NCBI GenBank assembly: GCA_044892525.1 | Contig: CM097887.1 | Location: forward strand, 144,376,397 to 144,440,396 | Length of the DNA stretch: 64,000 nucleotides | Direction: 5' to 3' | DNA from: Schmidtea polychroa | Lineage: Eukaryota | Shown: positions 46,261 to 64,000 of the stretch, in pieces | Layout: each line of letters begins with the position of its first letter | Position numbering within the stretch: position 1 is the first letter of the stretch | Notes under the pieces: model-generated | Seen by the model: only the letters and a program-made list of their open reading frames with translations | Told to the model about the DNA's origin: nothing | Databases searched by the model: none | Made by a program: the position numbers and the translations under genes

Positions 46261-47027
46261 AAAAAAATCTGGATCCTGGTGGAAAATCCTCGTACACAGA
46301 AATCTCCAACAATGTCAACCAAGGAAGAAAAGAAAAAATATTTTAATTAAAATTTTAGCCAGTTACAACATGCGAAAAAATACTAAATTTAAAGAGGTAA
46401 TTTTCGTCATAGACAATCAACACTAAGGTAGAAATAGAGGAATTGCCAGTACAAATAATATCTGCCAAACTGCTTTTTCAATCGAATTTCCTCGATATAC
46501 TTGTATTAATCAACAGGTTCCTTATTTTTATGTTATCTTTCTGTTTTTTTTTTCTTGAGAACGTTTAACTATTTTCTTCTTCTCGTTTTCTCGTAGGTTT
46601 TCTTCTGTTTCTCATCTGATTTCTTCAGTTGCCCTTCTGCTTTTTATAGGTTGTTATTTTCTGACACTTAGAGATAATTCCAATTTGTTTTTCTTTTCTT
46701 TTCTACAACCGCCAATTCCACTCATTGCTGTTATCTCTGACAGCTGTCAAGATATGTCACTTTGTTTGCTTTTTCTCTTTTTTATTTCCCAACCTTCTTC
46801 GGTTATTCACTTTATTTTATATAATTTCCACCAATACTTTTGTTCACTTTAACAATAATTATTTAATTTTTATTATTTAAGTATCCTCTCAACATATGTA
46901 TTAAATGAAAATGTTCATGATTGTATAATCATTTGAAAGGATTATCTAATAATCGAAAATTATTTCATTTCCTAGCAAAAGGTTTATCTTATCATTTGCC
47001 TGTTTAACATTTAATGTCTGCTGCTAC

Positions 47028-50000
47028 TGTTGGGGTCACACCTCGGCTGACCATTCTACCATGTTGGCGGGTCTAAGGGTTGATTGTCCATCTCGAATAG
47101 AAGGTGCCACCGATTTGTCAACCTGGAGTGAAACCCCACATAACTTTCTTCCAACATAGTGCCCGTGAATCACTTCACGTTGGTACTGCACTATGCAGGC
47201 GAGACGCCAGCAAGCAGGTGAGCTTCTGCCTTAAAACTACTCCTTGCTGAGGCCTCGACTTCCCATTCACGACTGCCGATAGAAGGGCTTACGTCCATTT
47301 CCTTACACAACCACCTATCAGGATTCGCTGAATGCAAATTGGGAAATTCTCGCTAGATCTTGCGGGTCCTCTTCTCAACCCACTTAATTAAAGTCTAATT
47401 ATTCAGGAACGAAAACGTGTAAGACAACAAGATTTATTAATTTCAACGTTATGACACAAGGATTCAGCTGTACACTTTACTAATGTTTGTCGAAAGAAGA
47501 GAAGACATCATAATCAACATAGATCGGATCCTTGTTCCTCATCCTGACCGCCACTGGGGTTTTATTGTTTCTCCCATTCAGTGTCGGCGAATAATTCGTC
47601 GAGGTTGAAAAACTCGGAAGCGTTCTCTTCCCACCTTACGCCAGCGGCTGATATGATTCGCGCTGAGGGTCCCGTTGTTAGGTCGATGGACACGTGAGAG
47701 TTGCCACCGTTGGTTGAGTCCTCTATTGATGGGATGTTTGGCTTTGCAGTAGCGCGCTCGCGCTGTCTCTTCTTGCGCTCTGCACGAGAGAGTTGTTTGC
47801 GCTTGGGTTTGCTTGAAGATGCCCCTTGCAGAAGGGTGACTGATACAGATGGACTAGCAGTGGGGGGCTTACTGGTACCCGTGAGGACAACATCTGGACG
47901 CTTGGGGGACCATTCGGTTTCGACGCAGTCTCGGCACGGTCTCTTGAACGGTGGAGATGGATTCGAGGAAAGGTTGTGATGAGGCGGAAAGATGTCATCG
48001 GCCTCTCGGATGGGAATCTGCACGATTTTTCGGGTTGTAGCCGCCTGCACGTAAACCTTATGCAGTGCCTCGGATTGTTCTCTGATTAGACTTCTTTGGG
48101 CACGGCTCTCAGATATTAGCGCGTCCCGGCAATGCTCGCTACGATCGAGCTTCTTTTGGATCTCTTTCATCCGAGCGGGACTAAACCATGTCCCTTCCAG
48201 CTCGTCTATCTTCCTCTTGTAACGTCCAATCTGAGTTTGTAGGTCCTTTATCACCGTATTTTTATCCGCGCACGAGAAGCACGGCCGTAATGCTGATTTA
48301 GTGGTTGGTAGCATGCTTGCTATAAATAATACTAATGAAATGGAGAACATACGATTTTAGAATAAATTAGATACGACCCGCGTCCATTCGTGGATACTTG
48401 ACCGTCGAAAAGAAGGAAAACTTATTCTACAATCCGGTTTTACTACGGATCTTAGTTGTTAAAACAGTTTATTTAACCAAATGCCATCGGTTTGACGCAT
48501 GTTATTAACTTTGACTATCTATTGATCTAACTGTATGCATGAGGGACGTAATAATTGATAGGGTGTAAATATAATATTGGTGAAACAATATAATAATGCT
48601 TTAGTAGAGGGACATTATAGTATGCGACCAAACCTTGCTATATGTTATCTATTTTGATTTATTAAAAACAAATTACTATCGCTCTCAACATATTTTTGAT
48701 TCGAAATTTGTTATTGGAAGTGCACTTTTAATTCGGTAGTGAATGTGATTATCTATGTTGTCTACCATTGGTCTGAAAATATGTGATGAGTTTACCTCAG
48801 CCATTACTTTACCACCCTCATGGAAAATCCCATCGGTCATAACATATCCAAATTTACGGATACTGCTGTCGACTGGTTGATTACATTATCGACCTATTGT
48901 GAATGTCACGTGTCGCGACTACTATGTATGCTAGTCTGATATTCTGTGCTCTCACCACATGGATTCGTGTATGGCTACTATCTTATCTCACTCACTTGGT
49001 GTATGCCATTTTCACGGTGATTTTATCGATCCTGCTGTCGTATGATTTTCTCTGCACAGTGATTTATTTGAGTTATGATTTATGCTACCGCCAGTTCTCA
49101 TCGCGGAATTTTACCCTTATCAACTTGTGTGAATGATCACCATCGTTTGGAAATTTATTGGGTCTTTTCAGTGATCGTCGAGGGAATAATTCTACCAAAT
49201 ATTGGAGCATATTACTACTCTCGTCATTCTACTCGGATTTTCCTATTCAGATGTAATGCCGTCTCGATGAAACCTGTCCTTTTCTCTCAGGTTCAATAAT
49301 TTGGATATATACAGAGATGACCTGGCTCTTATTGTAGAAATAAATGTTATTAATTAAATTTGGTGATATTTTACCTGTTTATAATTTTTGAAATAACTAA
49401 GTCTATAAAAACTTTCTGATTATAATACTAGAGAGGTTTTCGTAGAATCTCGCATTTTATAGTTTCGAGTTAGTTAAAGTTTTTAGAATACTTTCGTAAC
49501 TTGACATACAATCTGGACAGGTTAGATGACATTGGGTCTATGATAACGGAATTTCATACGAATTTAGTTCTACTGAGTCCGGCAAATAGACGTTGTCGCA
49601 ATTAATTTGATAAAACCATGTTTCCAGATGAAGTGTACTATGAGATGTTGTTATTTTTGACGAAGTTCACTAAATCGTGGTCTGGATCTCTTTTTTCAAT
49701 AGGGGTAAGACTTACGAAAACGACTTGACGAAAGAAGAATGCGACGCCCTCAATCACTGTGCAAATCCTTGAAAATCCCTTCATTCGTATGACTATCTTT
49801 GTGAAATCATTGTCTACCGGTTATTTTTTATCCATACCCCATTGTGATAATTTAGTCGCATCTTCAGCGATAGGACCCGTGAAGAAGCCTTCACATTTCG
49901 GCCCAATCTAGCTGCGCGATTGAAATACCCCATGTCCACCGGCTGAGCTCCCGAAGGCACCTCATACCATGACATGGAGTATCTCAACTCCACGTTACTC

Positions 50001-50235
50001 GTTAAATGAAAATTCATAAAATCTTTAATTCAAATAAAATACGGACATCTGGATAAAAACATTTTATTGATTCTGAAATACTTAAATAATACAAATTCCA
50101 TCAATACGTTAAAGTTATTAAAATGGAGAATCAAATGAAGAGAGTTAAAAATGTTTAATCGTTAATATTTAACATTATTATTAGCTTTGCAAATACTTAA
50201 ATAAATCTATAAACAAATGAAATACCCCTTACTAT
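47028..50235 (-). mobile_element. LTR-like/GC-richer block: either the distal part of a 3.8-kb LTR or a separate older element
   Basis: Sharp compositional edge at 47028 (minus-strand end CCCCAACA); AATAAA on minus near 47435; contains ORF 47562-48350 and decayed coding-like sequence. Confidence 0.4.
47562..48350 (-). CDS. Unknown protein (about 250-262 aa): CxxC, coiled coil, Pro/Ser-rich region, basic NLS-like stretch
   Basis: Intact ORF followed by a poly(A) signal about 125 nt downstream; PCFSC, PCRDC, KPKRKQLSRAERKKRQRER. Confidence 0.5.
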   Translation of the reverse strand: MFSISLVLFIASMLPTTKSALRPCFSCADKNTVIKDLQTQIGRYKRKIDELEGTWFSPARMKEIQKKLDRSEHCRDALISESRAQRSLIREQSEALHKVYVQAATTRKIVQIPIREADDIFPPHHNLSSNPSPPFKRPCRDCVETEWSPKRPDVVLTGTSKPPTASPSVSVTLLQGASSSKPKRKQLSRAERKKRQRERATAKPNIPSIEDSTNGGNSHVSIDLTTGPSARIISAAGVRWEENASEFFNLDELFADTEWEKQ

Positions 50236-50864
50236 TGTTAGGCTGAGTCAAAATTCAATGTTGTTCGTTCCAAATAGTTCTAATGGTGGTCCGTTGGATG
50301 TCGATTATTGTGATGAATGGTATTTCGGTCTCTGAACTGGTTTTGAATAGTTGTGGAGTTTTCTGAATGACGGTTGCTTGGCTAGTAGTGTCGATCCTAT
50401 GAAATGCTCGGGGTTAACAGTAAAAACAGTAAACATTTTTCTTACCTATGAAATGCTCGGGGTTAACAGTAAATTTAATGTTTTTGGTAGTTGTATATAT
50501 ATCAAATTCTTATTTGTGCGGACCAATCAGAGTTGAGTACCGCTTATTTCTATTAATTTAATATAATTTTCTTGTTTTTAGGTTGTTTTTTCCTTATTTT
50601 CTTTATTTTTAATATGTTTTTCTATTTATTTCCTTAATTTCCTTATTATTTCTTGAATTCCTCTTTATTTATTTGTCCACTTGTTCTATTTTAATCTTTT
50701 CTTAATTTTATTTTTTGTTTTAATTCTTATGTCTTAATTATTATTTTCCTTATATCTTATTCTATTTTATTTCTGATTTTATTTATTTTATTATTATTTT
50801 TCTTAATGTTCTACTTCCCTACTTTCCTATTTTTCAACGATTAAATTTTCGACTCAGCCCAACA
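50236..50864 (-). repeat. Candidate 3' LTR (629 bp) of the giant element
   Basis: Minus strand TGTTGGGCTGAGTC...GACTCAGCCTAACA; about 30-bp imperfect inverted ends; CCAAT then TATATATA near 50500-50530; 29-bp direct repeat at 50396-50424 and 50445-50473. Confidence 0.55.
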
Positions 50865-50887
50865 AATCACTCGGGGACCCATCAAAA

Positions 50888-50900
50888 TTGCGTCCCGCAA
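50888..50900 (-). promoter_or_regulatory. TTGCG-GGA-CGCAA hairpin just upstream of the PPT position
   Basis: Perfect 5-bp stem 24 nt from the LTR start; resembles the TTCG-GGAC-GAA-type motif often found before Gypsy PPTs (recalled pattern). Confidence 0.5.
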
Positions 50901-51090
50901 TTGCATAATTAACTTAATTCATTCATTCAAAAAAAAATATAACACGAACACTGAAAATTATACAACAATGATAAAAATTTTATTGTAAGATCAAGGTCAA
51001 AGCAAGACCAAGCAAGTATCACTTAAGGTGATAGTTGGTACATACAATAAAAGTTTCCACATATAATAACACAAATGTTTGAATTAGAGT

Positions 51091-51759
51091 TTATGAATTG
51101 TTAACCATTGATGCTTCTGCTGGCGGCTGTTGGTTGGTTTGGGTATTGATGTTGAGATAGGTCTGACTATTAGATTTCGGCTGGATTGGTTGATTACTCG
51201 GGGTTCGAGGTCGGAATGGGGTTGGGTTAAGATTTGTCAGGGGCACTTCTTGAGGATTTTGGTTCGAGGTTACTCTTATTGATGTCGAGATTCTACATCT
51301 ATTTCGAACTTCGTAAATTTTCATGAATATTGGTAGACATAGGAGGAGGGTTTCTGCGATCACCACATATATGAGATAATGGGCGTTATTGATTTCGGGA
51401 GGTATTTTTGGCTTTTCTACCAGATTTCCAAAATTCTCTTGTTGCATTTGTTGTTCCAACTGGTCGAATTGTTGAATTTGTTCGAGGATTTGTTTGTTTA
51501 TCATTTTACAAATGGGATTCTTTTTACACATTGTTTGGATGTTGTTGATGTGTGATCGGGTTGATTGAATGGTTTGGATGATATGGGTTTTTACGGTCAT
51601 CGGGTATGTGCATTGACTGGATTCTTGTTTAGGTTCTTGATTTTGATTTCGGTAATCTCGTACGATTTTCGGTTGGGCGTCTATTTGTTTGCTCTCCATC
51701 AGAATCATCAATACCATCATTGTTATCATCATCTCGCCTCGCATGATACTATTATACAT
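51091..51759 (-). CDS. Predicted type I membrane protein (signal peptide, 3-Cys ectodomain, TM, Pro/Gln/Asn-rich tail)
   Basis: MMITMMVLMILMESKQIDAQ; TM YLIYVVIAETLLLCLPIFM. Confidence 0.7.
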   Translation of the reverse strand: MYNSIMRGEMMITMMVLMILMESKQIDAQPKIVRDYRNQNQEPKQESSQCTYPMTVKTHIIQTIQSTRSHINNIQTMCKKNPICKMINKQILEQIQQFDQLEQQMQQENFGNLVEKPKIPPEINNAHYLIYVVIAETLLLCLPIFMKIYEVRNRCRISTSIRVTSNQNPQEVPLTNLNPTPFRPRTPSNQPIQPKSNSQTYLNINTQTNQQPPAEASMVNNS

Positions 51760-51799
51760 TCATTATGTTTATTTACAATTGGTTTTAATGACCCTTAAT

Positions 51800-52552
51800 T
51801 TAATGGTTCTGATTTGGATTATTTTCGCCGATTCTCATCAAGGTGGACTCTGCTTTAATTACCCTGTGTCTTAACTCGGGCAGCATTTCCAATTGTCGGT
51901 CTTTTTCACGGGCTTCTCTCTTTAGATGTCTAATTTCTTTTTCTAAGCGTCTAATTTCTTCCCTTTTCTTTTCAAGGTTTCTTTTTAGCTCGATTTGTAG
52001 GAGATCTTGTTCGTTTTCTTGCAGGTAATTTTGTTGTTGATGTTTTCTTTCTATTTCTCTATATTTGCGGACCCACTTCCTCATTTCTTTACTTTCCCGT
52101 TGGTTTTCTTCTAGTTGTCGTTTTAATTTATTTATAGCTGTTTGGCGCTCCTCCGCCTCAGTTTTCCAGTAGTCTTGGATTACCTCCTTTGCTTTGAAGC
52201 TTGCCCTCTCTTTCCATAGTTCTTCCGCTATCTTTTCCCAGTTTTTCCCTCGCTTCCTTTGTTCGTGTAGCCATTCATTTTCCTCTTCCGTTTCTCTTTT
52301 TATTTCCCCCAACGCTTCGCACTCTTTCTTTAACACCTTTATCATTTTCCGGTCCTCTAGGTATTTGTTTATTAATCTCCCGTTTTCGTATTTCTCTTCC
52401 CGTAACTCGGCCTTTAGCGTTTGTGTTTCTGTTGTTTCTGCCTCAATCTCTCCCTCTTCTACGTCGCTCATAATTTCTATCATTTCCTCGATTTTCATAT
52501 CTATAATATGTACAGTTAATGGTGCGCTATAGTGCGACTTATACGTATACAT
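51800..52552 (-). CDS. Coiled-coil protein (250 aa)
   Basis: E/K/R/Q-rich heptad pattern over most of its length; intact. Confidence 0.7.
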   Translation of the reverse strand: MYTYKSHYSAPLTVHIIDMKIEEMIEIMSDVEEGEIEAETTETQTLKAELREEKYENGRLINKYLEDRKMIKVLKKECEALGEIKRETEEENEWLHEQRKRGKNWEKIAEELWKERASFKAKEVIQDYWKTEAEERQTAINKLKRQLEENQRESKEMRKWVRKYREIERKHQQQNYLQENEQDLLQIELKRNLEKKREEIRRLEKEIRHLKREAREKDRQLEMLPELRHRVIKAESTLMRIGENNPNQNH

Positions 52553-52676
52553 TGATATAAAATTTAATAGTTTGGGTTACAGTCCCTTGAATACTTTTAC
52601 AATACTTTAAATTTTTTTTTTTTTTTTGTTTGGGATATACGTCCCGGTTTTTAGTTTTTCATCTTTTCATCCACCC

Positions 52677-53786
52677 TTATACGAAGGTTTCCTCCTGGCC
52701 TACATAACCTTCATCACTATCGACCGCGGAATGTAACTGTATCGCAATAGGGTCGTATGGTAGGTAATATTGGGGAATTTGAGCTCTCAATTCACTAACT
52801 TCGTCTCTTAGAGCTCGAGTGATGTTCAATTCCTCGTCGAGCAGATAGGTGAGATACCTTGTCTCTTCATCTTTCGCCTCTATCTGTTTGTCTAGGGCCT
52901 TGATTTTCTCGTCGCCCTTCCATTTTTCAATTTCTATTTCTAAGTTTTTAATATTTTCGATGTACATTTTCCTTTCGTTTTCTAATTTTCTGTTTTTTCC
53001 CGCTAGGACCATGTTTCTTTGTTCCAGCGATCCTTGTAATCCATTAAGGTCTCTTTTCATCTCTTCTACCTGATTTACTAATTCCACAACCCGTCCCGCT
53101 TGTTGGGTTATCATCTCTTCCATTGCGGCATTCTCGTGCTCTCTTATGTCGCACTTCATTGCCAAATGTCGCTCAAACTCCATAGCCTTTGTTTGCCAGG
53201 TTTGGCTTCGGGCGGCGACCTTTCTCAACCTTTTCAATTCTTCCTTTATTATTAAATTCTCCTCCCATTTACCTTGTTCGCTTTCATATCCGAGTCTCAT
53301 GGGCAATTCTTTCATCTCTTTTTTCATTTCTCTGTTTTGTCTTTTCCATTTTCTCGCTTCTGCCACTAAGTGCATCATTTTCCTGTCTTCTATTTGTTTT
53401 TCCGCTTCGCGCTTGGTGTTCTCATCGGTAAGTCTTTTTCTCGCTTCCTGCACTAGCTGCTTTAAGTAGTGGCTGTGTGCTTCTTGGCGGGTATTTTCTA
53501 GTGACGCCCATTTTGATGCTCTTTTGCATGCTTCTGCTTCCGCTCTTAAGTTGTGTATTAACCATTGGTATTGACTATTCTCATCTTCTCTAGTTTCTTC
53601 GATGTGATTTCGGGTGAGATTAGTTAGTTGGAACATTACTTTGTTCCATTTTTTATTATGTTCTCGGGGAATTTGTGTCTTGTTGACATTGGTTGGGGCT
53701 ATCGCAGTTTCGGTTATTTTCTCTTGTGTCATCTCTAAATCATAGACATCGATTAATCTTTTTATTATGAAAAGGAATTTATTCAT
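52677..53786 (-). CDS. Long coiled-coil protein (369 aa)
   Basis: Extended heptads with a non-coiled C-terminal tail; intact. Confidence 0.75.
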   Translation of the reverse strand: MNKFLFIIKRLIDVYDLEMTQEKITETAIAPTNVNKTQIPREHNKKWNKVMFQLTNLTRNHIEETREDENSQYQWLIHNLRAEAEACKRASKWASLENTRQEAHSHYLKQLVQEARKRLTDENTKREAEKQIEDRKMMHLVAEARKWKRQNREMKKEMKELPMRLGYESEQGKWEENLIIKEELKRLRKVAARSQTWQTKAMEFERHLAMKCDIREHENAAMEEMITQQAGRVVELVNQVEEMKRDLNGLQGSLEQRNMVLAGKNRKLENERKMYIENIKNLEIEIEKWKGDEKIKALDKQIEAKDEETRYLTYLLDEELNITRALRDEVSELRAQIPQYYLPYDPIAIQLHSAVDSDEGYVGQEETFV

Positions 53787-53924
53787 TATTTACTGTTTCT
53801 TGGGAAATTTTCGCATCATTTTTGGGTTTTCGTATTTAGGGTTTTCATACTATTATTATATAATATTTTATTGGTTATATACACCGATATATACAGATTA
53901 TTATATACAACATTATTCGATTGG

Positions 53925-55313
53925 TTACTCCGTTCTACCCTTCTCCTCTTTCCTCACGGTCATCTTGATATATATGGTATCATTTCTCGCCATATCTTCT
54001 ACTCTTTGTTGTGAGATGAACGTAGGTGCTCCTGTTGCTGATCCTTCTTCGTTGAGGGGCCTCTGGTAAGCTATTTGATTCCCCGTTGTTTTGAAGCTTT
54101 GCTCATGTATACTTTGGTTGTTCATCAGAGTAATATCGATTTTTGCCTGGAACGGCCATTCTAATATTTCGTCGTATTCTCCTTTACATAACAGAAAGAA
54201 AATCGAAAAGTGCGTATCCAATCCGGTTCCGTCCCCGTTGGGATATACCTTCATTTTCATTTTGTACCCATTTTTCCAAGAATGGAATGTAGGACTTGTT
54301 ATTCTTGTCTCTTCTCCGGTTTTTGCTTTTCGTATTCTTTCTTTTACTCCCGTTATTTTCCATATGTAGGGTGCTGTTGGGGTTATCTCATTTAGATTTA
54401 TTTCCCGTATTTTCTGATGTAGCTCCTTGGCCTGATTATTACTGATTTCTGTTCGGTTTATTTGCATCTTTATGTTTGCTCGGGCTTCTTCGAACGCTTC
54501 CCTTTCTTCTAGTAGTTCTTTGACTAACACTTTCAACGATGTTATCTCTATCTCCATTTGTTTTACTTTCTCTTCGCTTTCTTGTAGCGCAGTCGACCAC
54601 ATTTCTGCGTGAGTTGAAGCATTTTCTACTAAATGATGTGGTAACTCACCTCGGTGTAGTAGTTTCTGACAACCCCATCTACCTAGTACACATGTCATTC
54701 TTTTCTTTTCGCATTCCCTTAGATGCTGTGCCACCTTCATTATTTCCCCTTGGTTACATCCGTTTGGGCATTCCCCACTGAACTCCGCACATACTCTCTC
54801 CTCTTGGACATTGTGATGTTTGAGGGTGAGATTTATCCACGTATCTATTTCTCCACAGTGTTCACATCTTTCTAATCTCTCTTCACACTGCTTTTGATGT
54901 TCTTTTTCTTCGCTTGCTCGAATGGTTTTATGGCACCTTTCACACTGGCCAATTCTGTACATACATTCTCCCATATGTTGTACTACCTTCCATATTACTC
55001 CTTTCCATTCGCATGGGGCATTTTTGCATCCCAGGTTGGTGTTTAACATGTCTTTCACTGCGGCTTTATCCTCGTTAGTGTCTTCTAAACTCGATATTAG
55101 TGTCTCTTTACACACCGGGCACCTCTGTGGTCTATTCTTTATTGCTTCACTGATACATTCTTTACATACTCTGCATCCACATTGCGTTTGGTGAGGTTCC
55201 TTTAACAACTTTTCACATATTCCGCACATAACATGTTTGTGTATTCTGATCGTTGTAGATTTTCGGACTTGCTCGACAATCTCTCTGAACTCTTCTCTTT
55301 GTCGTTTATCCAT
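53925..55313 (-). CDS. Intronless TRAF-family protein (RING, zf-TRAF repeats, coiled coil, MATH)
   Basis: CGIC...CGCRVCKEC...CPVC; CKNAPCEWKG..HMGEC; YIWKI, SPTF...GYKMKMKVYPNGDGTGLDTHFSIFF, GEYDEILEWPF. Confidence 0.93.
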   Translation of the reverse strand: MDKRQREEFREIVEQVRKSTTIRIHKHVMCGICEKLLKEPHQTQCGCRVCKECISEAIKNRPQRCPVCKETLISSLEDTNEDKAAVKDMLNTNLGCKNAPCEWKGVIWKVVQHMGECMYRIGQCERCHKTIRASEEKEHQKQCEERLERCEHCGEIDTWINLTLKHHNVQEERVCAEFSGECPNGCNQGEIMKVAQHLRECEKKRMTCVLGRWGCQKLLHRGELPHHLVENASTHAEMWSTALQESEEKVKQMEIEITSLKVLVKELLEEREAFEEARANIKMQINRTEISNNQAKELHQKIREINLNEITPTAPYIWKITGVKERIRKAKTGEETRITSPTFHSWKNGYKMKMKVYPNGDGTGLDTHFSIFFLLCKGEYDEILEWPFQAKIDITLMNNQSIHEQSFKTTGNQIAYQRPLNEEGSATGAPTFISQQRVEDMARNDTIYIKMTVRKEEKGRTE

Positions 55314-55398
55314 TCTATAATTATATGTACAAATAGTTCTTATCGATACAGGTTCGATATTTTATTTACAATTATTTACATTTTAAGCTAGGTTTGGT

Positions 55399-55782
55399 TT
55401 AGGGTTCGGAAGAGTCGGCTTCGTGCCCGCTCTCCTCTCTATTCATTAGCCATTCCGACCAGTCTTCCATTTCTGTCTGTTCTGCTTCCTCCCTCATTCG
55501 GTCTATTTCAATTTCCTGTCGACGGCTATATTGGGTTATCCTCTCTATCTCTCTTTGCATTTGTTCGATTTTTAACCTCTGGTCTTCAATTATCTTCAAA
55601 TAACTAAATCCTCTGTTCATACTCTCGATCAGGTTTCTGTGCATCGTCAGTCCTTGTTCTTGCAGATTGGACACTAATTGTGCTAATACGGCACATTGTT
55701 GCTTCCATAATTCTTCAGTTACTGTATTGTGGTTCATTTCGTTATTTCCTTGATCCATTCCTAATTTATATACACTTTTCAA
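55399..55782 (-). CDS. Small coiled-coil protein (about 120 aa)
   Basis: Intact ORF between the polyprotein and TRAF; heptad pattern and acidic tail. Confidence 0.6.
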   Translation of the reverse strand: MKSVYKLGMDQGNNEMNHNTVTEELWKQQCAVLAQLVSNLQEQGLTMHRNLIESMNRGFSYLKIIEDQRLKIEQMQREIERITQYSRRQEIEIDRMREEAEQTEMEDWSEWLMNREESGHEADSSEP

Positions 55783-55918
55783 CTCTTATGTAAATTTAAT
55801 TTTATTTTATGATTCCCGTTATTGTATAATATTGATACCGCGCTTATATAGAGATATAGTACTGTTATATACATAAGATATACTTACTTTTTACAATTAT
55901 ATACAGTCATATTCCTTT

Positions 55919-58900
55919 CTATATACGTGAGTTTGGAGGGCGCTGAACGTTCCAGGCCTCCACCCACTGTCCTTGTTTGATATCACTTGGTCGTTTCACT
56001 CGATGTTGGAAGTTTCTGATTCGGGTCATTTCTAGTTCTCCGCGATGTCGTTTATCTTTAATTATTTTTATTGTTCCCCCCGTTATGATTAGGAATGCCC
56101 CTGTTATTATTATCCCACTGATCCACATCATCTGCTTCACGCTTATACTCTCTGGTTTTTCCTTGTTTGTTAATGTTGATATCGCTTCTGTACTTTTCTC
56201 GTTTCCTCTTTTGCCATTTCCTTTCATCATTTCCCGTATTCTTGCTATTTCCTCGTTCATACCCTCCTTTGCCATCTTTTGTATTTTTTCCATCTCTTCC
56301 TCCGAAACATAGTTGTCCTGAGCTTCCTCACCAGTTTTCTTGTGCTTTCCTCCTTCGTTCTTTTCGTCGTGGTTTTTTCTTTTCTTTCCTCTTTTCCCCG
56401 GGTATCGTCGGCATTCTCTTTTTGATTCAATCCTCCAGATACAAACCGTGTATTCTTTCGGCGGCTGCTGCTGCGTCACATATTGATGGCATCTCTCACC
56501 TGGTCCTAATCTTGAAATACAGACTTTGTGCTCTTTTCTAGGTTGGATCTGCGTTATTACTACTTCACCACCTTTTCCTAGGTGTACCTCTTTTCCTTTG
56601 ACGTTCGTTATTCTCTTCCCGTCTCGATTTCGGTATGCTTCTTGTATTCTTACTTCTGTTATTGGTTCTGTGTCCTCATTTATCAGTACTAGTTTCTGAT
56701 ACGCTCTAGACATGCATCTTCCTAGTATGCACCTTTCCTTTAAGTCCCATTCTTCCTTTAAATCCCACTGCTGCTCTTGTGCTTGCTTTCTCTTTTCTTG
56801 TTTTAGTTCATCCTCTTTGCTATCTTGATTCTCCGCTTCTTTGGTTTCTTTTATCGTTCTCGTCCCTCCCTGAGCTGTTACTAACTCTATCATGGTAAGC
56901 ATAATTATCATTAATATCATATTTGTCTCTATTTCTTTGTTAGTGAAAGGTAGGCATACCCTCTGTTTTCCATTATTCGATTTTTCCTCCTCTTTGGTCT
57001 TGGTTCTCGGGCTGTTTCCCTCTCTTTTCGTATCCGAATCCTTGTTTTCTGGTTTACCCTCCTCCGGTTCTCTTTTCTCTTTATCCTCCTTTCGGTCTTT
57101 TCCGTTATTGTCATCGTGTTTATCTCCCTCGCTGTCATTTAAAATGTCGTCCTCGACATTTATATCGTTCAATAATCTGCGATATGCTGTTAGCACTCTG
57201 TTTCTTGCTAATTTTGCTTCGAATTCAAACTCTTTTCTACCCGTTGCAGCATGTCTCTTTCTATTCCATTCTTTAACTAACTCTCTCAATTGCATACGAC
57301 GATGTTTGCCAATTCGTTGTTGCTCGTTCTGATTTTGCGTGAATTTTAGGTCTTCTCTATTTAATACTATTAAAATAATTTTAGGCGTCCCCCCCTTAGT
57401 TAGGGTATTCTTTACCATCGCATTTTCTCCGTTTTCGTAGAATTCGTTTACATTTATCGCATATTTATTATTTGGTGGTACTCTCCAGGTTAATAATAAT
57501 TTCATTGCTTCTAGATTTTTCCGTACCGTATTCCATTGAAACTGAGATGTGTTTTTGCACATATTTTCAACTTCTTCTTCTGTCGCATTTTTGCAAATAA
57601 ATCTGATCATTTCTAAGTTTGGCTGTATGGTTGCCCAGTCCAAGGTGGAATTTCCTTCATTGGACCTTTCGTCTAGTTTCGATCCTGATTGATGTAGGAT
57701 GTGGAGTGTTTTTGGGTGTATTTTCGTTATAGCTGCATACATCATGGCGGTTTCACCTTGTTCATTTTTCGTGTTGGTTTCCTCGCCCATCTCCCCAAGG
57801 ATTCTCATGATCGTTATTGCTCTATTCTCTTTTGCAGCTAGTATTGCTTGTTGTAGGGGTGTTCGGGAATCCTTCGTTACCATCGTAAATGCTCGAGGCA
57901 AGAAGGTTTTGATTTTCCCGATATCTAAACCCGTGGTTTGATCTCTTGCGTATGTGTGTACGGCTTTTATTATTTTGGACAATATTATTTCGTCTGGCAG
58001 CTCTAGCATTTCCTCAAAGAACACTTCTTTTGCTTTGCGTATTATTGCCTCTTGATCTATACTCATTGATTTGGTTTCGATGACGTTGTTTGTGACCGTT
58101 CGGTTCGTTGTTGACTTTGATTCCCTGGATTTCTCATACCTTATTTTCGTTTTCTTTCCGTTTGGATTATTGATTCGTTCCTCTGCTGTAAGTATTTGGA
58201 TAATATCCATGTAATTCTCGCGGATGTTATTCATCGTGTCCATCATATATAACACACTTACTGTTTCCCAATATTTATGTCGTACTTGGTTAGTAAATTG
58301 GAATAGTGATTTTTCGAATGTGTCGATTCGCTTTTTTGTTAACTGTTCGTCTTTGTGATTTGTGAATTTTATCCCTCGTTCTAGTAATTGATTCGGGATT
58401 TCGAATAAATGATGTCCTTTCATAGCTTCTCTCATCAGCGTGTTCTCCCCTCTCGTGAACGCTTCGTTTACGTTGATCATATAATCGTTTCGAATTGGAT
58501 TTCTCCATGTAATTAATATTCCGGTAATTGTCGTCAGTTTTTCTTTGATCGCTGTTAGCAATCCATCATACATGTTTCCGACTTCCCGATTGTCCTCATA
58601 TGATAGTAGTTCCATCAATGACGTGAACGCCTCGGTACTTCTCCCTCTGATAGCATGATGTAGAGCGTTTTTCCGCTCGTGGTCTTGTGTAGTTATTTTC
58701 GATCCGGTATCGAGTAATGCGGTTATAATGTCTTTTGTTTTGCCTCTGTTTGCGGCTATCATTAATGGTGTGTAACCTTGGTTGTTTGTTTGTTCTGTTG
58801 ATCGCTTGCAGTCGTGAAATGCTTCTATTGTTTCTAGTATTTGCTCGTTGTTACCTACTTTCATGAGTTTGTGTAATGGTGTGTCTCCGTAATGATCTGT

Positions 58901-61900
58901 TATTGTAAATAATATTGGCCATTGGCTTTTGACTACTCGCAATAATGGGTGTGTCCTTTCTCTATTTGCATAGTTCTCGATCATCGTCAATAATCCTCCT
59001 AATATTTCGAAATCTAATCGATCTTTCGCCCATCCAGGTATTTTAATTTTTACCTCTTTTACAATCTTTTCCGCTTCTGATGGTTGGATACCTAATCGTC
59101 CAGTGATCGGTTCTGCGAGTTGTTGCATCATGTTCATTCGGTAGGTTTGCGAACGTGTGGTTAATGTACGGCCTTCTGGTTGACTAGTGGCTGTTTTTGG
59201 AATTGATTTGCATCGTGCCACGTTTACGTATATTGGTCTGGTAAAGGGGTTATTTACCAATTTCACTCTTACATTAGTTTCGCCTACGAATAAGATCTCA
59301 TATGGTCCTTTTCCGTTGCGTTGTAACTTTTTTGTGGTTCCTGGAATTAATTCCGGGGTTTCTATCATTACCCAATCCCCTGTTTGGAACGTATGTTGCT
59401 TCACGTTTTTCTTTCGATCGTGTAAATCTTTATAACTTTCCTGGTAGAACTTGATATTTAATCCCGCAGTTTCCCAAATTTCTTGCATTCTTTCCTTGAA
59501 TTTCGTAACATAATCATCGATCTCCATATACTGCGATATCGGTGGTTGGTATTCCAGGTCCATTGGCATATTACATTCTCTTCCGTACATTAATTTGAAT
59601 GGGCTCATTTTCGTTGATGCGTGAATCGACATTCTGTACGCCATAAGACATAGGTTTATATATTCGTCCCAATCTCGTTGGTGACGGTCAACGTAGTTTG
59701 ATAACATTTGTATAAGTGTTCCATTAAATCTTTCCGTCATCCCATTGGTTTGAGGGTGGTATGGAGATGTTCTTAGTTTTGCTATTTTGAAGTAATTTGT
59801 TACTTCGCTCATTATCTCACTCATAAAATTTGTTCCCTGATCGGTTAAGATTTGTTTTGGTGTTCCATATCGGCAACATATCTCTTCTACCAAAATTTTT
59901 GCGATTGTTTTAGCTTTTTGGTCTGGCATCGCGAATGCTTCTGGGAATTTCGTAAGAAAGTCTGTGATCACTAGAATGTAAACGTTTCCTTTATCTGACT
60001 CTGGTAGTGGACCAACTACGTCCATGGATATCATTGTCATTGGTTCTATTGGTACTGGCATTGGCGTTAAAGGTGCTTTCCATTTCGATCCCGTATTCTT
60101 CCTGGTTGCACAAGTTAGACAATTTTTTACCCATTCGGTTACATCTTCCGTTAACGTAGGCCAAAAATATTTCTGTTTCATTCTTGCTAACGTCTTTTTC
60201 GATGACATATGTCCTCCCAATCTCCCATCGTGATATTGCGTTAGTAACTCTTTTCGTCGGTTTTCCGGTATACACATTAATCGTTTTTCCCCATCCATTA
60301 TCAGCAACCAATCTTTCTCTATAATATATCGGTGTCGGTGTTTATCCATATGTTCTTTTAATTTTTGGTCTTTCGCATATACATCTGTCTGTCCGGTTTT
60401 TATATAATCGATAATTTGTTTTAATTCCGCGTCCTCTTGTTGGTCCTTTCGCAATTGACAGAAATCCAAATCTTCCGCTACTATTAAGCATATGCGTTGC
60501 ATTTCTGAATCCACCAAATCTGGGAAAATAAATCTTGACATACAATCGGCGTTGGCATTTGCTCTTCCCGCTTTAAATTTTATAAATGGGGAGTATTCTT
60601 GCAATTGCATGGCCCATCTCATCAGTCTACTGGACGCTTCTTTATGTTGCCCTAACCACACTAATGGTTGATGGTCTGTGGTTATGCATATCTCATGTCC
60701 CCATAGTAAATATCGGAAGTGTTTGATAGCTTGTATTATAGCCAATGCTTCTCGTTCTGTTACCGAATAGTTCTTTTCGTGCTTTTTGAATGTTCGACTG
60801 TAATACCCGATTACTCTCTCTTTTCCCTCATCGTCCAATTGTCCCAGAATCGCGCCTGCCGCGTACCCGCTTGCATCCGTTGCCAATAGAAATGGCTTCT
60901 TAAAATCTGGGTGTACGAGGATAGGTGCTTCGATTAGTTTGTCTCTCAGCGTTTCAAACGCCTCTTGTTGTTCCTTCCCCCATAAGAACGAAATGTCCTT
61001 CTTTACTAGTTCCTGGATTGGTTTTGCAATTCCTGCATAATTTTTGATAAATTTGCGATAGTATCCGCATAATCCTAGAAATTCCTGAACTTGGGTGACA
61101 GTTTTCGGTGCTGGACATAGTTTTATTTTCTCAATGTTTCTTGGATCTGGCTCCTTTCCTTTAGCTGACACTATGTGTCCTAAAAACGTGACTTTTTCCT
61201 TTGCCCAATCGCATTTTGATGGTTTGAGTTTGAGTTTCCACTGTCTTAATCTAATAAATACGTTTCGGATATCTTCTAGATGTTGTTCAAATGTCGCTGA
61301 ATAGATTAGTAAATCATCAATATATACCATACATTGTTTGATTCCATGGGTGACAAAGTTCATACACCGTTGAAATGATGCTGGTGCGTTAGTCAGTCCA
61401 AATGGCATTTTCCTGAATTGATATAGATCTCGTCCCAACGTGAAAGCTGTTTTCTCTTTGTCCTCATCTTTGACTTTAATCTGCCAGTATCCACTTTTTA
61501 GATCTAAAGAAGTAAAATATGCTGCCCCTTGCAACATCAATAACATCTCATTGATGTCTGGCAATGGATAGGTATCTCTCTTGGTCACTGCGTTTAACTT
61601 CCGATAATCGATACAGAATCGTTGGGTGCCATCTTTCTTTTTCACCATGACCACTGGGAATTGCCAGGGTGAGCAACTTGGTTCGATTACTTTTGCGTCT
61701 AGCATCTTTTGTACTTCTGTTTCGGCTATTTCTTTCTGCATTTCTGCTAGCTTGTATGGTCTCAATGCAATTGGAGTTTCATCTATGAGGGGTATTGCAT
61801 GTAGGGTAACATCGCATGTACCCAAGTCTAAGTCTGAGATGGCGAATATATCTTTATATTCTACCAACAATCGGTGTAATTTTTTCTTTTCATCATTCGT

Positions 61901-64000
61901 CAACAACATACTATCTATTGTCCATAATTCATCATCTTTGATCATCTCGTTGGTCACTTTCGGTAATTCTATGTCCATCATTGGGGTCAATCTTCCCAAT
62001 TTTTCGTTCTCATAAATGATTTTGTCTTCCTCTTCGAAATTCGTGATGTTGAGCGGTATCACTCCTTCTTGGTTTATTGTGATTATTTCTCTTGCGAGTG
62101 GTAATTCTCGTCGCTTTTCGAATGACTTGCTTGGTTCAAAGATAACTTCTCCTTCCATACCCGTATCCACTTTTATCTGACAAATCATCTGCGATTTTGC
62201 TGGTACTATTATTTTTTCTGGACATCTGATGACTGCATTCATTTTGCATATTCTACCGGTTTTGTCTTTTAAACACATAGTTGTTAAGTCTATTACGACT
62301 TCTTTTAATAATTCTGGCATCAGGTCCGTTCCGATTATGCATGGTACGCTAAGTTTTGGTATTACTGCCAAATACGTTTCAATTTCGTTGTCCTGGTATC
62401 TCAATGTAGTCCACCATCTTCCGACCACGTCCACTGTTTCTTTACTACATGCTATGATGTGAATTGTTGTTGATTCGATATCCTTCCAGTGTTTACTGGG
62501 GATTTGATTAATCGCTATCGCTGATACATTAGCTCCGGTGTCTATCATAGCATTGGTTTCTTTACCATTGATTTGAATCATAACTGTTACTGCTGGACCT
62601 CCAGGTAAACTCATCGCTGCTATTGTTCTTACGTCATCTGCTTGATCTACACTTTTGGTACGTCGTGTTGGCATATAATGCATACCGGGTTGACTCGGTA
62701 ATTGCGGATACATATTTTGTGTCATGGTCAAAGCTGTTTGTGGTCCCACGATATCCGGTGGTATATAGCTTCCATTGGCGATCCAGGTGTTTGTCTTTTC
62801 CTTTTCCCAATATGGTGCCGTTTCCATTGGTTTTTCGTTTGGGTTTCTGTTTGGATAAAGACATTTATCGTTCCCGTTATCATCGTCGTCACTATCGCTG
62901 TTAGATGATTGGCTTCTAAATCGGTCCAAGAATTTTGGCTTATTCTTTTTCAATTGTCGTCTTGTTGCTTCATCGTACATTACTTTCCGGAATCGTCTGC
63001 CTACTTCCTCGTCGGTTCCTTTAATCTTTGTTAATATTTTAATCAATCGCTTTATCCGATGAATGTCTTTTGAGTGGCCATGTAATACCATGGTCTTAGC
63101 TAAAAATGGTAAGAAGCCTACTATCATTTTCCAATTAACTTTCTTTTCCCGCTTGTATATATCGAAACAAGCTAACATTTGTGTTAGTATTACTCTGACT
63201 ATCTGAATTATGAGTATGATCCCTAATATCCCGGCCATCATTTGTCCAAAAACTAAGAATCTTCCCCACATTGCTTTCATCATGTTTGACGTAGCTTGTT
63301 GAAAATGGTCTGGCGATAATAGCAGCTCGTAATTCGGGCCTGATTGATAGTTTGTGCCCCCAGTTATTGTTACCATATTAGACAAAATGGATTCTCGTCT
63401 GGCTGGGAAGAGTACGTTAAGTCGTGCTGTTTCTAGATCTTCTGGGGAATACATACCACCGTTTGACACGTCTATAGGTTTGAAATCCAGCTCTGTGGCG
63501 AGTTCTATTAATCCAAATTTCTTGGGCTCCTCGGATATGGTTTTTCCCGGTAACATCATCCATTTCCCATCGGGCCTTTCATATAAAGGTCCGTATGCAT
63601 TAGAACAGTTAAAGAGATTTGGGTAGAAACCCACTGGATTCATAATTCTAGTGACTGGTTGGACGAATCGATTTTGTCCTTTATAACGGATTTCTAATTC
63701 ATTTGCACATCTCTTTTCGGGTAGTATGGATTTTTCTGGCATTCGTGCATACGTCTTGGTACACTGGTATGTGTACATCACTTCTCCTACCATTCTACCA
63801 AAGTGTCCATCTGGTAATGGGAGTGATGGCATCGTGTTATCTGGGTGCGTTATCGCAATAGCTAGCTTTGTTTTCAATATTTCTTTATTCAATGAACAAT
63901 CGTTTTGTATTAGATCGTAATATACTTTTTGCAAGGTCGTTTGTCCGCGATGAAATAGAAAATCCATTTTATTATTTGCATATAAGTATAGTTTTACGTC
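55919..64000 (-). CDS. Polyprotein: gB/chuvirus-like glycoprotein C-half, TM, PR, RT, RNase H, IN, two ankyrin modules, membrane-anchored tail (5' end beyond window)
   Basis: Frame is open from 64000 (DVKLYLYANNK-MDFL...). TM about 63185-63260; DTG 62534-62542; YIDD about 61314-61325; TDAS/TDHQPL; HHCC, MDVVGP (60020), TDQG, TERFN; GPY about 59300; TPL ankyrin motifs 58888-57630. Confidence 0.95.
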   Translation of the reverse strand, partial: DVKLYLYANNKMDFLFHRGQTTLQKVYYDLIQNDCSLNKEILKTKLAIAITHPDNTMPSLPLPDGHFGRMVGEVMYTYQCTKTYARMPEKSILPEKRCANELEIRYKGQNRFVQPVTRIMNPVGFYPNLFNCSNAYGPLYERPDGKWMMLPGKTISEEPKKFGLIELATELDFKPIDVSNGGMYSPEDLETARLNVLFPARRESILSNMVTITGGTNYQSGPNYELLLSPDHFQQATSNMMKAMWGRFLVFGQMMAGILGIILIIQIVRVILTQMLACFDIYKREKKVNWKMIVGFLPFLAKTMVLHGHSKDIHRIKRLIKILTKIKGTDEEVGRRFRKVMYDEATRRQLKKNKPKFLDRFRSQSSNSDSDDDDNGNDKCLYPNRNPNEKPMETAPYWEKEKTNTWIANGSYIPPDIVGPQTALTMTQNMYPQLPSQPGMHYMPTRRTKSVDQADDVRTIAAMSLPGGPAVTVMIQINGKETNAMIDTGANVSAIAINQIPSKHWKDIESTTIHIIACSKETVDVVGRWWTTLRYQDNEIETYLAVIPKLSVPCIIGTDLMPELLKEVVIDLTTMCLKDKTGRICKMNAVIRCPEKIIVPAKSQMICQIKVDTGMEGEVIFEPSKSFEKRRELPLAREIITINQEGVIPLNITNFEEEDKIIYENEKLGRLTPMMDIELPKVTNEMIKDDELWTIDSMLLTNDEKKKLHRLLVEYKDIFAISDLDLGTCDVTLHAIPLIDETPIALRPYKLAEMQKEIAETEVQKMLDAKVIEPSCSPWQFPVVMVKKKDGTQRFCIDYRKLNAVTKRDTYPLPDINEMLLMLQGAAYFTSLDLKSGYWQIKVKDEDKEKTAFTLGRDLYQFRKMPFGLTNAPASFQRCMNFVTHGIKQCMVYIDDLLIYSATFEQHLEDIRNVFIRLRQWKLKLKPSKCDWAKEKVTFLGHIVSAKGKEPDPRNIEKIKLCPAPKTVTQVQEFLGLCGYYRKFIKNYAGIAKPIQELVKKDISFLWGKEQQEAFETLRDKLIEAPILVHPDFKKPFLLATDASGYAAGAILGQLDDEGKERVIGYYSRTFKKHEKNYSVTEREALAIIQAIKHFRYLLWGHEICITTDHQPLVWLGQHKEASSRLMRWAMQLQEYSPFIKFKAGRANANADCMSRFIFPDLVDSEMQRICLIVAEDLDFCQLRKDQQEDAELKQIIDYIKTGQTDVYAKDQKLKEHMDKHRHRYIIEKDWLLIMDGEKRLMCIPENRRKELLTQYHDGRLGGHMSSKKTLARMKQKYFWPTLTEDVTEWVKNCLTCATRKNTGSKWKAPLTPMPVPIEPMTMISMDVVGPLPESDKGNVYILVITDFLTKFPEAFAMPDQKAKTIAKILVEEICCRYGTPKQILTDQGTNFMSEIMSEVTNYFKIAKLRTSPYHPQTNGMTERFNGTLIQMLSNYVDRHQRDWDEYINLCLMAYRMSIHASTKMSPFKLMYGRECNMPMDLEYQPPISQYMEIDDYVTKFKERMQEIWETAGLNIKFYQESYKDLHDRKKNVKQHTFQTGDWVMIETPELIPGTTKKLQRNGKGPYEILFVGETNVRVKLVNNPFTRPIYVNVARCKSIPKTATSQPEGRTLTTRSQTYRMNMMQQLAEPITGRLGIQPSEAEKIVKEVKIKIPGWAKDRLDFEILGGLLTMIENYANRERTHPLLRVVKSQWPILFTITDHYGDTPLHKLMKVGNNEQILETIEAFHDCKRSTEQTNNQGYTPLMIAANRGKTKDIITALLDTGSKITTQDHERKNALHHAIRGRSTEAFTSLMELLSYEDNREVGNMYDGLLTAIKEKLTTITGILITWRNPIRNDYMINVNEAFTRGENTLMREAMKGHHLFEIPNQLLERGIKFTNHKDEQLTKKRIDTFEKSLFQFTNQVRHKYWETVSVLYMMDTMNNIRENYMDIIQILTAEERINNPNGKKTKIRYEKSRESKSTTNRTVTNNVIETKSMSIDQEAIIRKAKEVFFEEMLELPDEIILSKIIKAVHTYARDQTTGLDIGKIKTFLPRAFTMVTKDSRTPLQQAILAAKENRAITIMRILGEMGEETNTKNEQGETAMMYAAITKIHPKTLHILHQSGSKLDERSNEGNSTLDWATIQPNLEMIRFICKNATEEEVENMCKNTSQFQWNTVRKNLEAMKLLLTWRVPPNNKYAINVNEFYENGENAMVKNTLTKGGTPKIILIVLNREDLKFTQNQNEQQRIGKHRRMQLRELVKEWNRKRHAATGRKEFEFEAKLARNRVLTAYRRLLNDINVEDDILNDSEGDKHDDNNGKDRKEDKEKREPEEGKPENKDSDTKREGNSPRTKTKEEEKSNNGKQRVCLPFTNKEIETNMILMIIMLTMIELVTAQGGTRTIKETKEAENQDSKEDELKQEKRKQAQEQQWDLKEEWDLKERCILGRCMSRAYQKLVLINEDTEPITEVRIQEAYRNRDGKRITNVKGKEVHLGKGGEVVITQIQPRKEHKVCISRLGPGERCHQYVTQQQPPKEYTVCIWRIESKRECRRYPGKRGKKRKNHDEKNEGGKHKKTGEEAQDNYVSEEEMEKIQKMAKEGMNEEIARIREMMKGNGKRGNEKSTEAISTLTNKEKPESISVKQMMWISGIIITGAFLIITGGTIKIIKDKRHRGELEMTRIRNFQHRVKRPSDIKQGQWVEAWNVQRPPNSRI

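Follow-up and report, generated by a model that had tools for sequence, protein, structure and literature searches.

What is the long run of open reading frames (ORFs) beside a Hox gene in this stretch of Schmidtea polychroa DNA (64,000 nucleotides, hereafter the window), does it replicate as an enveloped virus, and does its position matter for the Hox gene? A preliminary description had placed a young giant retroelement over at least 13.7 kb from position 50236 onward. We examined its structure, its age, its envelope gene (env) and its known relatives.

Structure and extent of the element

The window carries the 3' half of a complete Gypsy LTR element of 30,007 bp with an internal region of 22,333 bp, the remaining 13,034 bases being located past the window end (Table 1). 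The long minus-strand ORFs are all uninterrupted as described, but the proposed edge had to be moved, since position 50236 is a TG inside the 3' LTR and the element runs from 47028 onward. The segment 50236-50864 was also considered as a short LTR and rejected; it forms the beginning (629 bp) of the 3.8-kb LTR, with an inner inverted repeat in 11 of 24 copies. The features of Ty3/Gypsy elements are present, including TG...CA LTRs with a target-site duplication, a CCHC Gag (three knuckles), the order protease, reverse transcriptase (RT), RNase H and integrase, and a tRNA primer site, which in all 24 copies lies 7 nt from the LTR end. Duplications of 4 bp were also detected for five other copies.

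A polypurine tract, a usual Ty3/Gypsy feature, is absent before the 3' LTR. The hairpin-like motif located at the expected site is shared without change by 23 of 24 copies and by a relative of about 75% identity, and its core has 163 exact matches in the genome. Compact gag-env-pol relatives from this genome, by contrast, carry a normal polypurine tract. An active LTR family with an invariant non-purine motif at the site of the polypurine tract would extend the usual picture of reverse transcription.

Pfam detected in one frame a Monjiviricetes fusion protein, protease, RT, RNase H, integrase and ankyrins, and in a separate ORF a RING-MATH TRAF, for which the best PDB matches were TRAF3/TRAF2 (E ~1e-27). 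Three hydrophobic membrane-type segments were found in the polyprotein (residues 2178-2196, 4285-4303 and 4545-4563) and a further one in the 222-aa ORF; the C-terminal module is a predicted second surface protein of presumed topology. The reported combination of fusogen, ankyrins, TRAF and membrane proteins was thus recovered by the Pfam and hydrophobic-segment scans; the 262-aa ORF, present twice per element because it lies inside the LTR, had been left out.

Table 1. Features of the element and its surroundings (positions above 64000 are extended coordinates, beyond the window)
Feature	Position	Strand	Remarks
Hox3-like homeobox exon, outside element	44230..44485 (about)	+	75-78% identical to flatworm Hox3-like proteins
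Target-site duplication CTAC	47024..47027	.	same 4 bp directly after far end of element
3' LTR, 3,837 bp, TG...CA	47028..50864	-	
262-aa ORF inside LTR, without family match	47562..48350	-	shared-variant pN/pS 0.21
Inverted inner copy of LTR start	50236..50249	.	one LTR type only, 11/24 copies
Hairpin-like motif at expected polypurine-tract site	50865..50909	-	
222-aa ORF, N-terminus hydrophobic, one membrane segment (128-146)	51091..51759	-	no family above cut-off
250-aa ORF, coiled-coil-like	51800..52552	-	no family above cut-off
369-aa ORF, coiled-coil-like	52677..53786	-	no family above cut-off
TRAF, full-length, intronless: RING, zinc fingers, coiled coil, MATH	53925..55313	-	shared-variant pN/pS 0.23
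119-aa orphan ORF	55399..55758	-	
3' part of single 4,617-aa gag-env-pol polyprotein	55919..64000	-	start codon 5,772 bases past window end
C-terminal module	56084..56920	-	internal signal-like segment 4285-4303, membrane segment 4545-4563
Two ankyrin-repeat blocks, downstream of integrase	57599..58849	-	pN/pS 0.15
Integrase (H2C2 and core)	59753..60271	-	Pfam
Reverse transcriptase (YIDD) and RNase H	60593..61645	-	
Aspartic protease (DTGA)	62309..62584	-	
env, C-terminal half	63038..64000	-	membrane anchor 63185-63241; pN/pS 0.03
Rest of polyprotein	64001-69772	-	Gag, weak ubiquitin-like/Bcl-2-like segments, N-terminal half of env
74-bp tandem repeat	71080-71782		
161-aa ORF with IAP-type RING (E 2e-10)	72370-72855		
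Primer site, 18 nt, for host tRNA-Pro(TGG)	73173-73190		
5' LTR	73198-77034		
Second CTAC	77035-77038		

The segment before env is possibly Bcl-2-like, with Pfam Bcl-2 E-values of 0.036 for this element and, for two relatives, of 0.0048 and 2.3e-5; none of the three reaches the Pfam cut-offs. A profile of the three segments matched Bcl-xL/Bcl-2 chains among the 60 matches listed (best E 0.007), while the segment as a single sequence gave no match in PDB or Atlas searches. One of three candidate ubiquitin-like segments matched ubiquitin (E 0.005, below the Pfam cut-off), and the spacer between protease and RT has a size fitting the dUTPase-like relic of Burro-type elements, for which Pfam and PDB gave no match. 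The host-signalling toolkit attributed to the element is present as TRAF, ankyrin, RING and putative Bcl-2-like cargo, mostly under purifying selection; its role in signalling is putative. As to splice acceptors ahead of the accessory ORFs, an AG is located at most 10 nt from the ATG in the 161-, 119-, 462- and 369-aa ORFs and is absent for the 250-aa, 222-aa and LTR ORFs; a pyrimidine filter for splice acceptors was passed by 2 of 10 tested starts, against 97 of 663 ATGs in the background.

Age of the insertion and the Hox3-like neighbour

The 5' and 3' LTRs differ at a single one of 3,837 bases, in agreement with the recent insertion proposed earlier, for which LTR identity and insertion polymorphism had been suggested as checks. 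As to the latter, contigs from one read run break exactly at either side of the target duplication, with a depth of 160 for the junction contig and 325 for the flank, and in two read runs of another study the LTR side of the junction is uncovered. The insertion therefore appears polymorphic, with filled and empty alleles; the empty allele is left unbridged by 31 letters on both sides, and the site falls within a short repeat. Dozens of near-identical copies are located on four large contigs. One contig carries 18 position-ordered copies, of which 13 encode a polyprotein of at least 4,600 aa and 16 show at most one LTR mismatch. Since copies differ by a median of 1.3% and all polyprotein genes compared are distinct (22 of 22), several lineages are active. 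Other transposable elements in the window are decayed, as had been stated, including hAT-like pieces (34359-37139) and a small Gypsy with split ORFs (20805-24558), whose 133-bp terminal repeats nevertheless share 98% identity.

The G+C content of the element (38-40%, against 20-30% in the flanks) and the near identity of its LTRs might point to an assembly chimera or a contaminant, one of the conditions named earlier as refuting the proposal. This explanation has virtually no chance of being correct: it is ruled out by the 4-bp target duplication, by host DNA on both sides within a 144.6-Mb contig, by the multiplicity of copies over four large contigs and by a read contig that spans the right junction without differences.

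An adjoining Hox gene had also been claimed, and a Hox3-like homeobox exon was indeed identified 2,543 bp from the edge of the element. The further claim that the element is positioned to affect this locus is not supported beyond this proximity; the family is scattered over the genome and no target was shared in the flanks of the 23 other copies. The insertion might matter as an enhancer, a terminator or a heterochromatin seed, or by lying in the intron before the last exon. Besides the short distance, such an effect would fit the observation that flatworm orthologues extend 100-180 aa beyond the homeodomain, while the frame here turns AT-rich after a possible donor site, so that a further Hox3 exon may exist. 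However, neither a tblastn search with 15 mostly flatworm orthologues nor an ORF scan located a last exon on either side, and we regard an influence on the gene as improbable. Since the insertion seems absent from other samples, the Hox3-like gene works without it. The gene is most likely a bystander of an untargeted insertion.

Envelope protein and mode of replication

The env region corresponds to residues 1599-2245 of the polyprotein, extends to 978 bases past the window end and includes a furin-type site at residue 1862 in the same numbering. A single-sequence model was unusable (pLDDT 29), and an alignment-based model with a mean pLDDT of 89.5 was used instead. All PDB matches listed for this model were to herpes gB (best E 1.7e-13), and the best matches among viral structures were glycoproteins of chu-like viruses (TM up to 0.74); env is thus predicted to fold as a class III fusogen of the chuvirus/herpes-gB type. 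The whole class III ectodomain is retained, a property common to distant gag-env-pol relatives of 27-41% identity. Word-indexed homologue searches with env and TRAF gave no match at E<=0.001, a null result that is uninformative because HMMER, applied to cluster representatives, detected 1,056 env relatives. A scan of viral contigs gave 22 pattern matches, none of which was confirmed.

Using equal-rate site counting over copies that are not independent of each other, 13 amino-acid-changing and 115 silent env variants were detected among the 23 other copies (pN/pS 0.031), as compared with pN/pS of 0.058 for RT-RNase H, 0.020 for integrase and 0.149 for the ankyrin region. The difference between env and the ankyrin region was significant (p=1.5e-8), and shifted-frame controls gave 2.0 and 2.8. 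Purifying selection on env is equal to that on RT and integrase. For the 161- and 250-aa ORFs selection was non-significant among young copies, and the 250-aa ORF carries two shared stops. The selection on env indicates that env is needed; it does not place where fusion happens.

Because the fusion protein is as conserved as the core enzymes, the element likely still makes enveloped particles. The reading that we prefer, at a probability of roughly 0.55, is that of an intact, very recent Burro-type Gypsy insertion with a conserved class III env, replicating via enveloped particles able to enter other worm cells. The proposal that it behaves like an endogenous enveloped virus is borne out in anatomy and selection, given the modelled fold of env and its low pN/pS; the movement between cells that had also been suggested is plausible. 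RNA would start in the 5' LTR, and the polyprotein would pass through the ER membrane so that env faces the lumen, Gag and the Bcl-2-like part stay cytosolic, and protease, RT, integrase and ankyrins hang from the cytoplasmic tail of env. We only infer this topology, because the signal-like stretch at the N-terminus of env (about 1600-1617) fell under the hydrophobicity threshold used. With Pol hanging from the env tail, Pol would enter the particle via membrane assembly, the particle would be enveloped and env would have to fuse into a cytosol. Reverse transcription would be primed by tRNA-Pro, and the plus strand probably started by the conserved hairpin present instead of a polypurine tract, while the TRAF, IAP-type RING, ankyrin and Bcl-2-like cargo would probably reduce signalling for cell death and immunity in the producing cell.

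That cytosol could also be the one of the producing cell itself, if particles bud inwards, into the ER or endosomes, and are returned to it by env-driven fusion, making env essential without infection of other cells. Such a cycle within one cell, which we consider possible but somewhat doubtful, is consistent with all the selection data and with the location of Pol behind the membrane anchor of env, because of which membrane assembly would be needed in any cycle. It also agrees with the conclusion of Chary and Hayashi that errantivirus POL clades follow host lineages, making frequent broad horizontal transfer unlikely (PMC13524379). The furin-type site and the predicted second surface protein, on the other hand, suggest a secretory route to the cell surface. 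After loss of PIWI control, BURRO1 RNA is reported in intestinal and epidermal cells (PMC8532177); such somatic expression would be a dead end without transfer, and fits a route from soma to stem cells. No particle, protein or cell-to-cell transfer is reported among the studies listed by literature searches, and in the account of PMC13524379 the transmission of gB-type env is unknown and it is open whether such invertebrate retroelement envelope genes still work.

Alternatively, env might be kept for a role other than entry, such as letting the env-Pol precursor fold and adopt its topology correctly, blocking related elements or fusing cells with each other, with ordinary retrotransposon movement. 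Since env is in frame with Pol, stops and frameshifts in env are removed whatever env does, and one young copy lacks the first part of env though its LTRs are 99.6% identical. Missense changes, beyond stops, are nevertheless purged as strictly as in integrase, and the ectodomain is whole even in the distant relatives, which makes this explanation quite unlikely.

An extended form of the particle-based reading remains tentative and, taken as a whole, rather doubtful: an enveloped endogenous virus that is spreading in planarians at present, passing from differentiated to stem or germ cells by its gB-like fusogen, with polymerase packaged via the env tail, the producing cell shielded by TRAF, IAP-RING, ankyrin and Bcl-2, and plus-strand priming by the hairpin. 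If true, it would make this the first of the gB-type errantiviruses for which infection is shown, as well as an LTR element that uses a new mode of priming.

Comparison with known elements

The design, implied earlier to be novel, is a published one: the element is of the Burro type (PMC6431247) and of the GAG-ENV-POL gB type of errantiviruses (PMC13524379), as far as these accounts describe them. The discovery value is therefore modest. Since env missense changes are purged like those of integrase in an actively spreading family, and polymorphic insertions provide natural markers, the question of a working gB-type env can be put to a direct test in a model animal whose stem cells are transplantable.

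By its description in PMC6431247, Burro/GYPSM1 shares with this element a size of about 30 kb, long LTRs, an internal region of more than 20 kb, a single polyprotein of 4,600-5,100 aa, a three-CCHC Gag, an env placed in frame between gag and pol, the PR-RT-RH-IN order, ankyrins, TRAF/MATH and IAP-related cargo, and an internal tandem repeat; the ubiquitin-like and Bcl-2-like parts of Burro have putative counterparts here. The polyprotein is 4,617 aa here, against 4,873 for Burro1 and 5,140 for D. tigrina. MATH is located here in a complete, free-standing TRAF ORF downstream, whereas in Burro it is in the polyprotein or upstream. A BIR is noted for GYPSM1/Burro1, whereas Pfam scans of this element gave an IAP-type RING and no BIR, which speaks against its being Burro1 itself but leaves membership of the wider Burro kind unaffected. 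The LTR ORF and the absence of a polypurine tract are not mentioned in the Burro account of PMC6431247. That account linked Burro env to gypsy Env/F proteins and proposed it as a mark of proviruses; the fold predicted here is class III.

Smed_errantivirus_1-6 of PMC13524379 likewise have a Ty3/gypsy Pol, the gag-env-pol order, a gB-type env, multiple intact copies and a flatworm host. The nearest env is that of Smed_errantivirus_5, and since it is only about 55% identical over about 190 aa (hand count), the present element belongs to a separate family. No LTR or primer site is given for the six (tRNA 'none'; LTR pairs more than 14 kb apart excluded), and the words TRAF, ankyrin, purifying, synonymous and polypurine do not occur in the main text of that source. 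The compact relatives in the same genome share the order gag, putative Bcl-2-like segment, env and pol, with env-pol 33-38% identical and TG...CA LTRs 99.8-100% identical, but differ in total length (14-18 kb), LTR length (0.8-1.1 kb), a 3,319-aa ORF and another primer site. Drosophila gypsy/ZAM are alike in principle as LTR elements with a captured fusogen, gypsy passing from soma to germ line; unlike env here, the gypsy env is separate, F-type and located after pol (PMC13524379). Mosquito Anakin is a captured-fusogen LTR element too, but belongs to BEL/Pao and carries a chuvirus glycoprotein.

Extent and anatomy of the element

The unbroken state of the ORFs claimed in the preliminary description was confirmed on the minus strand, where ORFs run in series without interruption from 51091 to the window end. 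After addition of the next 50 kb of genome, the total length was found to be 30,007 bp, with LTRs of 3,837 bp each that differ by 1 base, and CTAC as the target duplication at both ends. At 50236, the start assigned previously, the beginning of the LTR is repeated in inverted form inside the LTR itself; this inner repeat is present in 11 of 24 copies (the window copy and 23 others), and the true edge is 47028. The primer-site offset of 7 nt is identical in 24/24 copies. We regard this anatomy, together with the priming site and the integration mark, as established.

Features of the element and its surroundings (extended coordinates continue the window into the following genome DNA; order is in the sense direction)
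Feature	Position	Strand	Details
Burro-type element	47028 to extended 77034	-	
5' LTR	first		262-aa ORF
Primer site, 18 nt	7 nt from LTR end		match to host tRNA-Pro
161-aa ORF	after primer site		IAP-type RING
74-bp tandem repeat	after 161-aa ORF		
Polyprotein	after tandem repeat		4,617 aa
ORFs of 119, 462 (TRAF), 369, 250, 222 aa	in that order between polyprotein and 3' LTR		
3' LTR	last		
Small Gypsy	20805-24558	-	terminal repeats of 133 bp, 98% identical; gag-pol disrupted; integrase truncated
C2H2 zinc-finger exons	13662-14057, 33092-33883	+	upstream of Hox3-like gene
Probable upstream Hox exon	42070-42230	+	hexapeptide-like YPIYRWM motif
Leucine-rich-repeat exons of host gene (L003-L005)	extended 92,700-110,300	+	far side of element
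tRNA-Pro(TGG) genes (L007, L008)	G000:C1:130.90-130.95 Mb		tandem array, 475-bp period

Pfam identified in one polyprotein frame a Monjiviricetes fusion glycoprotein (E 2e-36), protease, RT, RNase H, integrase and ankyrins. The N-terminal part is Gag with three CCHC knuckles, followed by ubiquitin-like and Bcl-2-like segments, for which matches were weak and sub-threshold yet consistent, some searches being blank. Next is env, in which a furin-type site and a membrane anchor were recognized; PR-RT-RH-IN and then two blocks of ankyrins come after it, and the tail of the polyprotein contains two hydrophobic segments. The 462-aa ORF carries RING and MATH domains (Pfam) and matches TRAF2/3 over its whole length. 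By eye, the LTR start (50850-50864) can form a 9-nt pairing with the primer-binding site (L001, following DNA), a complementarity that could allow 5'-3' pairing of the genomic RNA. The 3' pattern of tRNA-Pro, the primer tRNA, has 2,212 matches in the genome.

The homeobox nearby is Hox3-like (flatworm proteins nearest, 75-78%) and does not form a cluster with the other homeoboxes listed; its last exon may lie out of view. This Hox match and the type of the element point to a planarian host. The LTR starts 2,543 bp downstream, and this distance is the sole link between insertion and gene, leaving the proposed influence on the Hox3-like locus without further footing. The zinc-finger exons may belong to a Schnurri/HIVEP-type gene. 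The statement that all other transposable elements are decayed holds in that the other window elements are broken, but not for the terminal repeats of the small Gypsy, for which no clear target duplication was found.

Copies, age and activity

The 20-mer of the LTR start occurs 175 times, with 30 pairs 24-27 kb apart counted among the first 100 places; first-look candidates amounted to 597 (internal kilobase) and 1,206 (LTR piece), which are not copy numbers. For comparison, 5 copies were picked by likeness and 18 as consecutive pairs on contig C1 (one already included was skipped). A polyprotein of at least 4,600 aa is kept in 13 of the 18 C1 copies, and 3/5 of those picked by likeness are unbroken. 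LTRs are identical in 6/18 and carry at most 1 mismatch in 16/18. Since copies differ over the polyprotein (median 1.3%) and the same internal region is joined to two types of LTR whose middles are unrelated, several lineages are active. On C1 one LTR type measures 3.84 kb and the other 4.1-4.16 kb, their ORFs have about 262 or 250 aa, and the unrelated part lies at about 1.0-2.55 kb, on an internal region that is 98% identical, which suggests promoter swapping by recombination.

The element is real, young and active, and of a kind already known; its youth, claimed earlier, agrees with the near-identity of its LTRs. As for polymorphism between samples, contigs of sequencing run X3 break exactly at both duplication sides (junction depth 160 against 325 in the flank), in run X4 the junction is covered as deeply as the flank, and X5 and X6, from another study, leave it uncovered. 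This points to an insertion polymorphic at this site, at the level of contigs, in which loose letters are not shown, and at a site within a short repeat. The element landed within a short host repeat of high copy number, about 40-60 nt long, and divided it (~47010-47027; L002:3035-3070, beyond the window).

Selection on the ORFs and the missing polypurine tract

The chief points of note are selection on env and the missing polypurine tract. Polyprotein variants were called in 23 copies against the window copy as reference. The pN/pS was 0.031 for env (13 missense, 115 silent), 0.058 for RT-RNase H (26/120), 0.020 for integrase (12/150) and 0.149 for the ankyrin region (103/183), and shifted-frame controls gave 2.0 and 2.8. 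We count selection among the established points. The difference between env and the ankyrin region has p=1.5e-8, whereas env and RT are not distinguished (p=0.08); these p-values are guides only, because the counting assumes equal rates and the copies are related. Shared variants in 21 young copies gave 0.23 (TRAF), 0.29 (369-aa ORF), 0.35 (222-aa ORF) and 0.21 (LTR ORF), selection being not significant for the 161-aa and 250-aa ORFs.

No purine run exists in the 45 nt preceding the 3' LTR. This 45-nt motif is identical in 23/24 copies and, first base apart, in a relative that is only about 75% identical in the surrounding sequence; its core occurs 163 times in the genome. Three compact gag-env-pol relatives have a normal polypurine tract at the corresponding place. 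The motif, as modelled without a shuffle control, forms a stem that stops a few bases short of the LTR, the main arm ending 6-7 nt before it and mirroring the primer-site offset. We tentatively guess, at well under even odds, that it serves as an RNase-H-resistant hairpin primer; a thin literature search found no precedent for such a replacement. The rival is a short imperfect tract, such as that of Ty1. The compact relatives (L084-L099) measure 14-18 kb; their LTRs are young, and they carry an ORF of 3,319 aa.

The env fusogen and known systems

At E<=0.001, HMMER detected 1,056 env relatives. Among 15 scanned, nine have a retroviral protease or RT behind env, three are long proteins without further Pfam match and three are stand-alone glycoproteins. 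The env profile (95 sequences) matched exclusively herpes gB in PDB (34/34 rows, best E 0.004); each of the Atlas matches listed fell into one of the families Monjiviricetes, rhabdovirus G, gp64 and gB. For the alignment-based model (mean pLDDT 89.5), gB appeared in every PDB match listed, and the best viral matches were chu-like glycoproteins. Because profile and model both point to gB or chu-like glycoproteins, the predicted fold of env is class III. A first look across the genome gave 2,580 candidates for the fusogen family. Two env-pol polyproteins came from public assemblies: P0006, filed under a bacterial genome bin, is probably animal DNA, and P0151 (4,844 aa) has several protease domains and an ankyrin ahead of RT.

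By its predicted membrane topology, the polyprotein would carry Pol on the tail of env, and particles would be enveloped. Fusion into a new cell is our main reading (probability about 0.55); fusion into the same cell instead is appreciably less probable. In the producing cell, the cargo would damp death and immune signalling.

A 2019 review (PMC6431247) describes Burro as longer than 30 kb, with a polyprotein of nearly 5,000 aa in which env stands between gag and pol, and with MATH, BIR, ankyrin and Bcl-2 cargo, and puts forward a provirus hypothesis. The exact architecture may already be published as Burro-2, -3 or -4 in Grohme 2018 or its supplements. BURRO1 is under PIWI control, according to PMC8532177; PMC11410931, PMC12440569, PMC13238120 and bioRxiv 2022.12.06.519325 give further context. 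Among the papers listed in literature searches, judged by title and opening of the abstract, none reported Burro particles or env selection. Six GAG-ENV-POL gB-type elements of S. mediterranea are listed in PMC13524379, the nearest env among them being about 55% identical by hand count. The class III assignment agrees with that work, and corrects the F-type link drawn in the 2019 review (PMC6431247).
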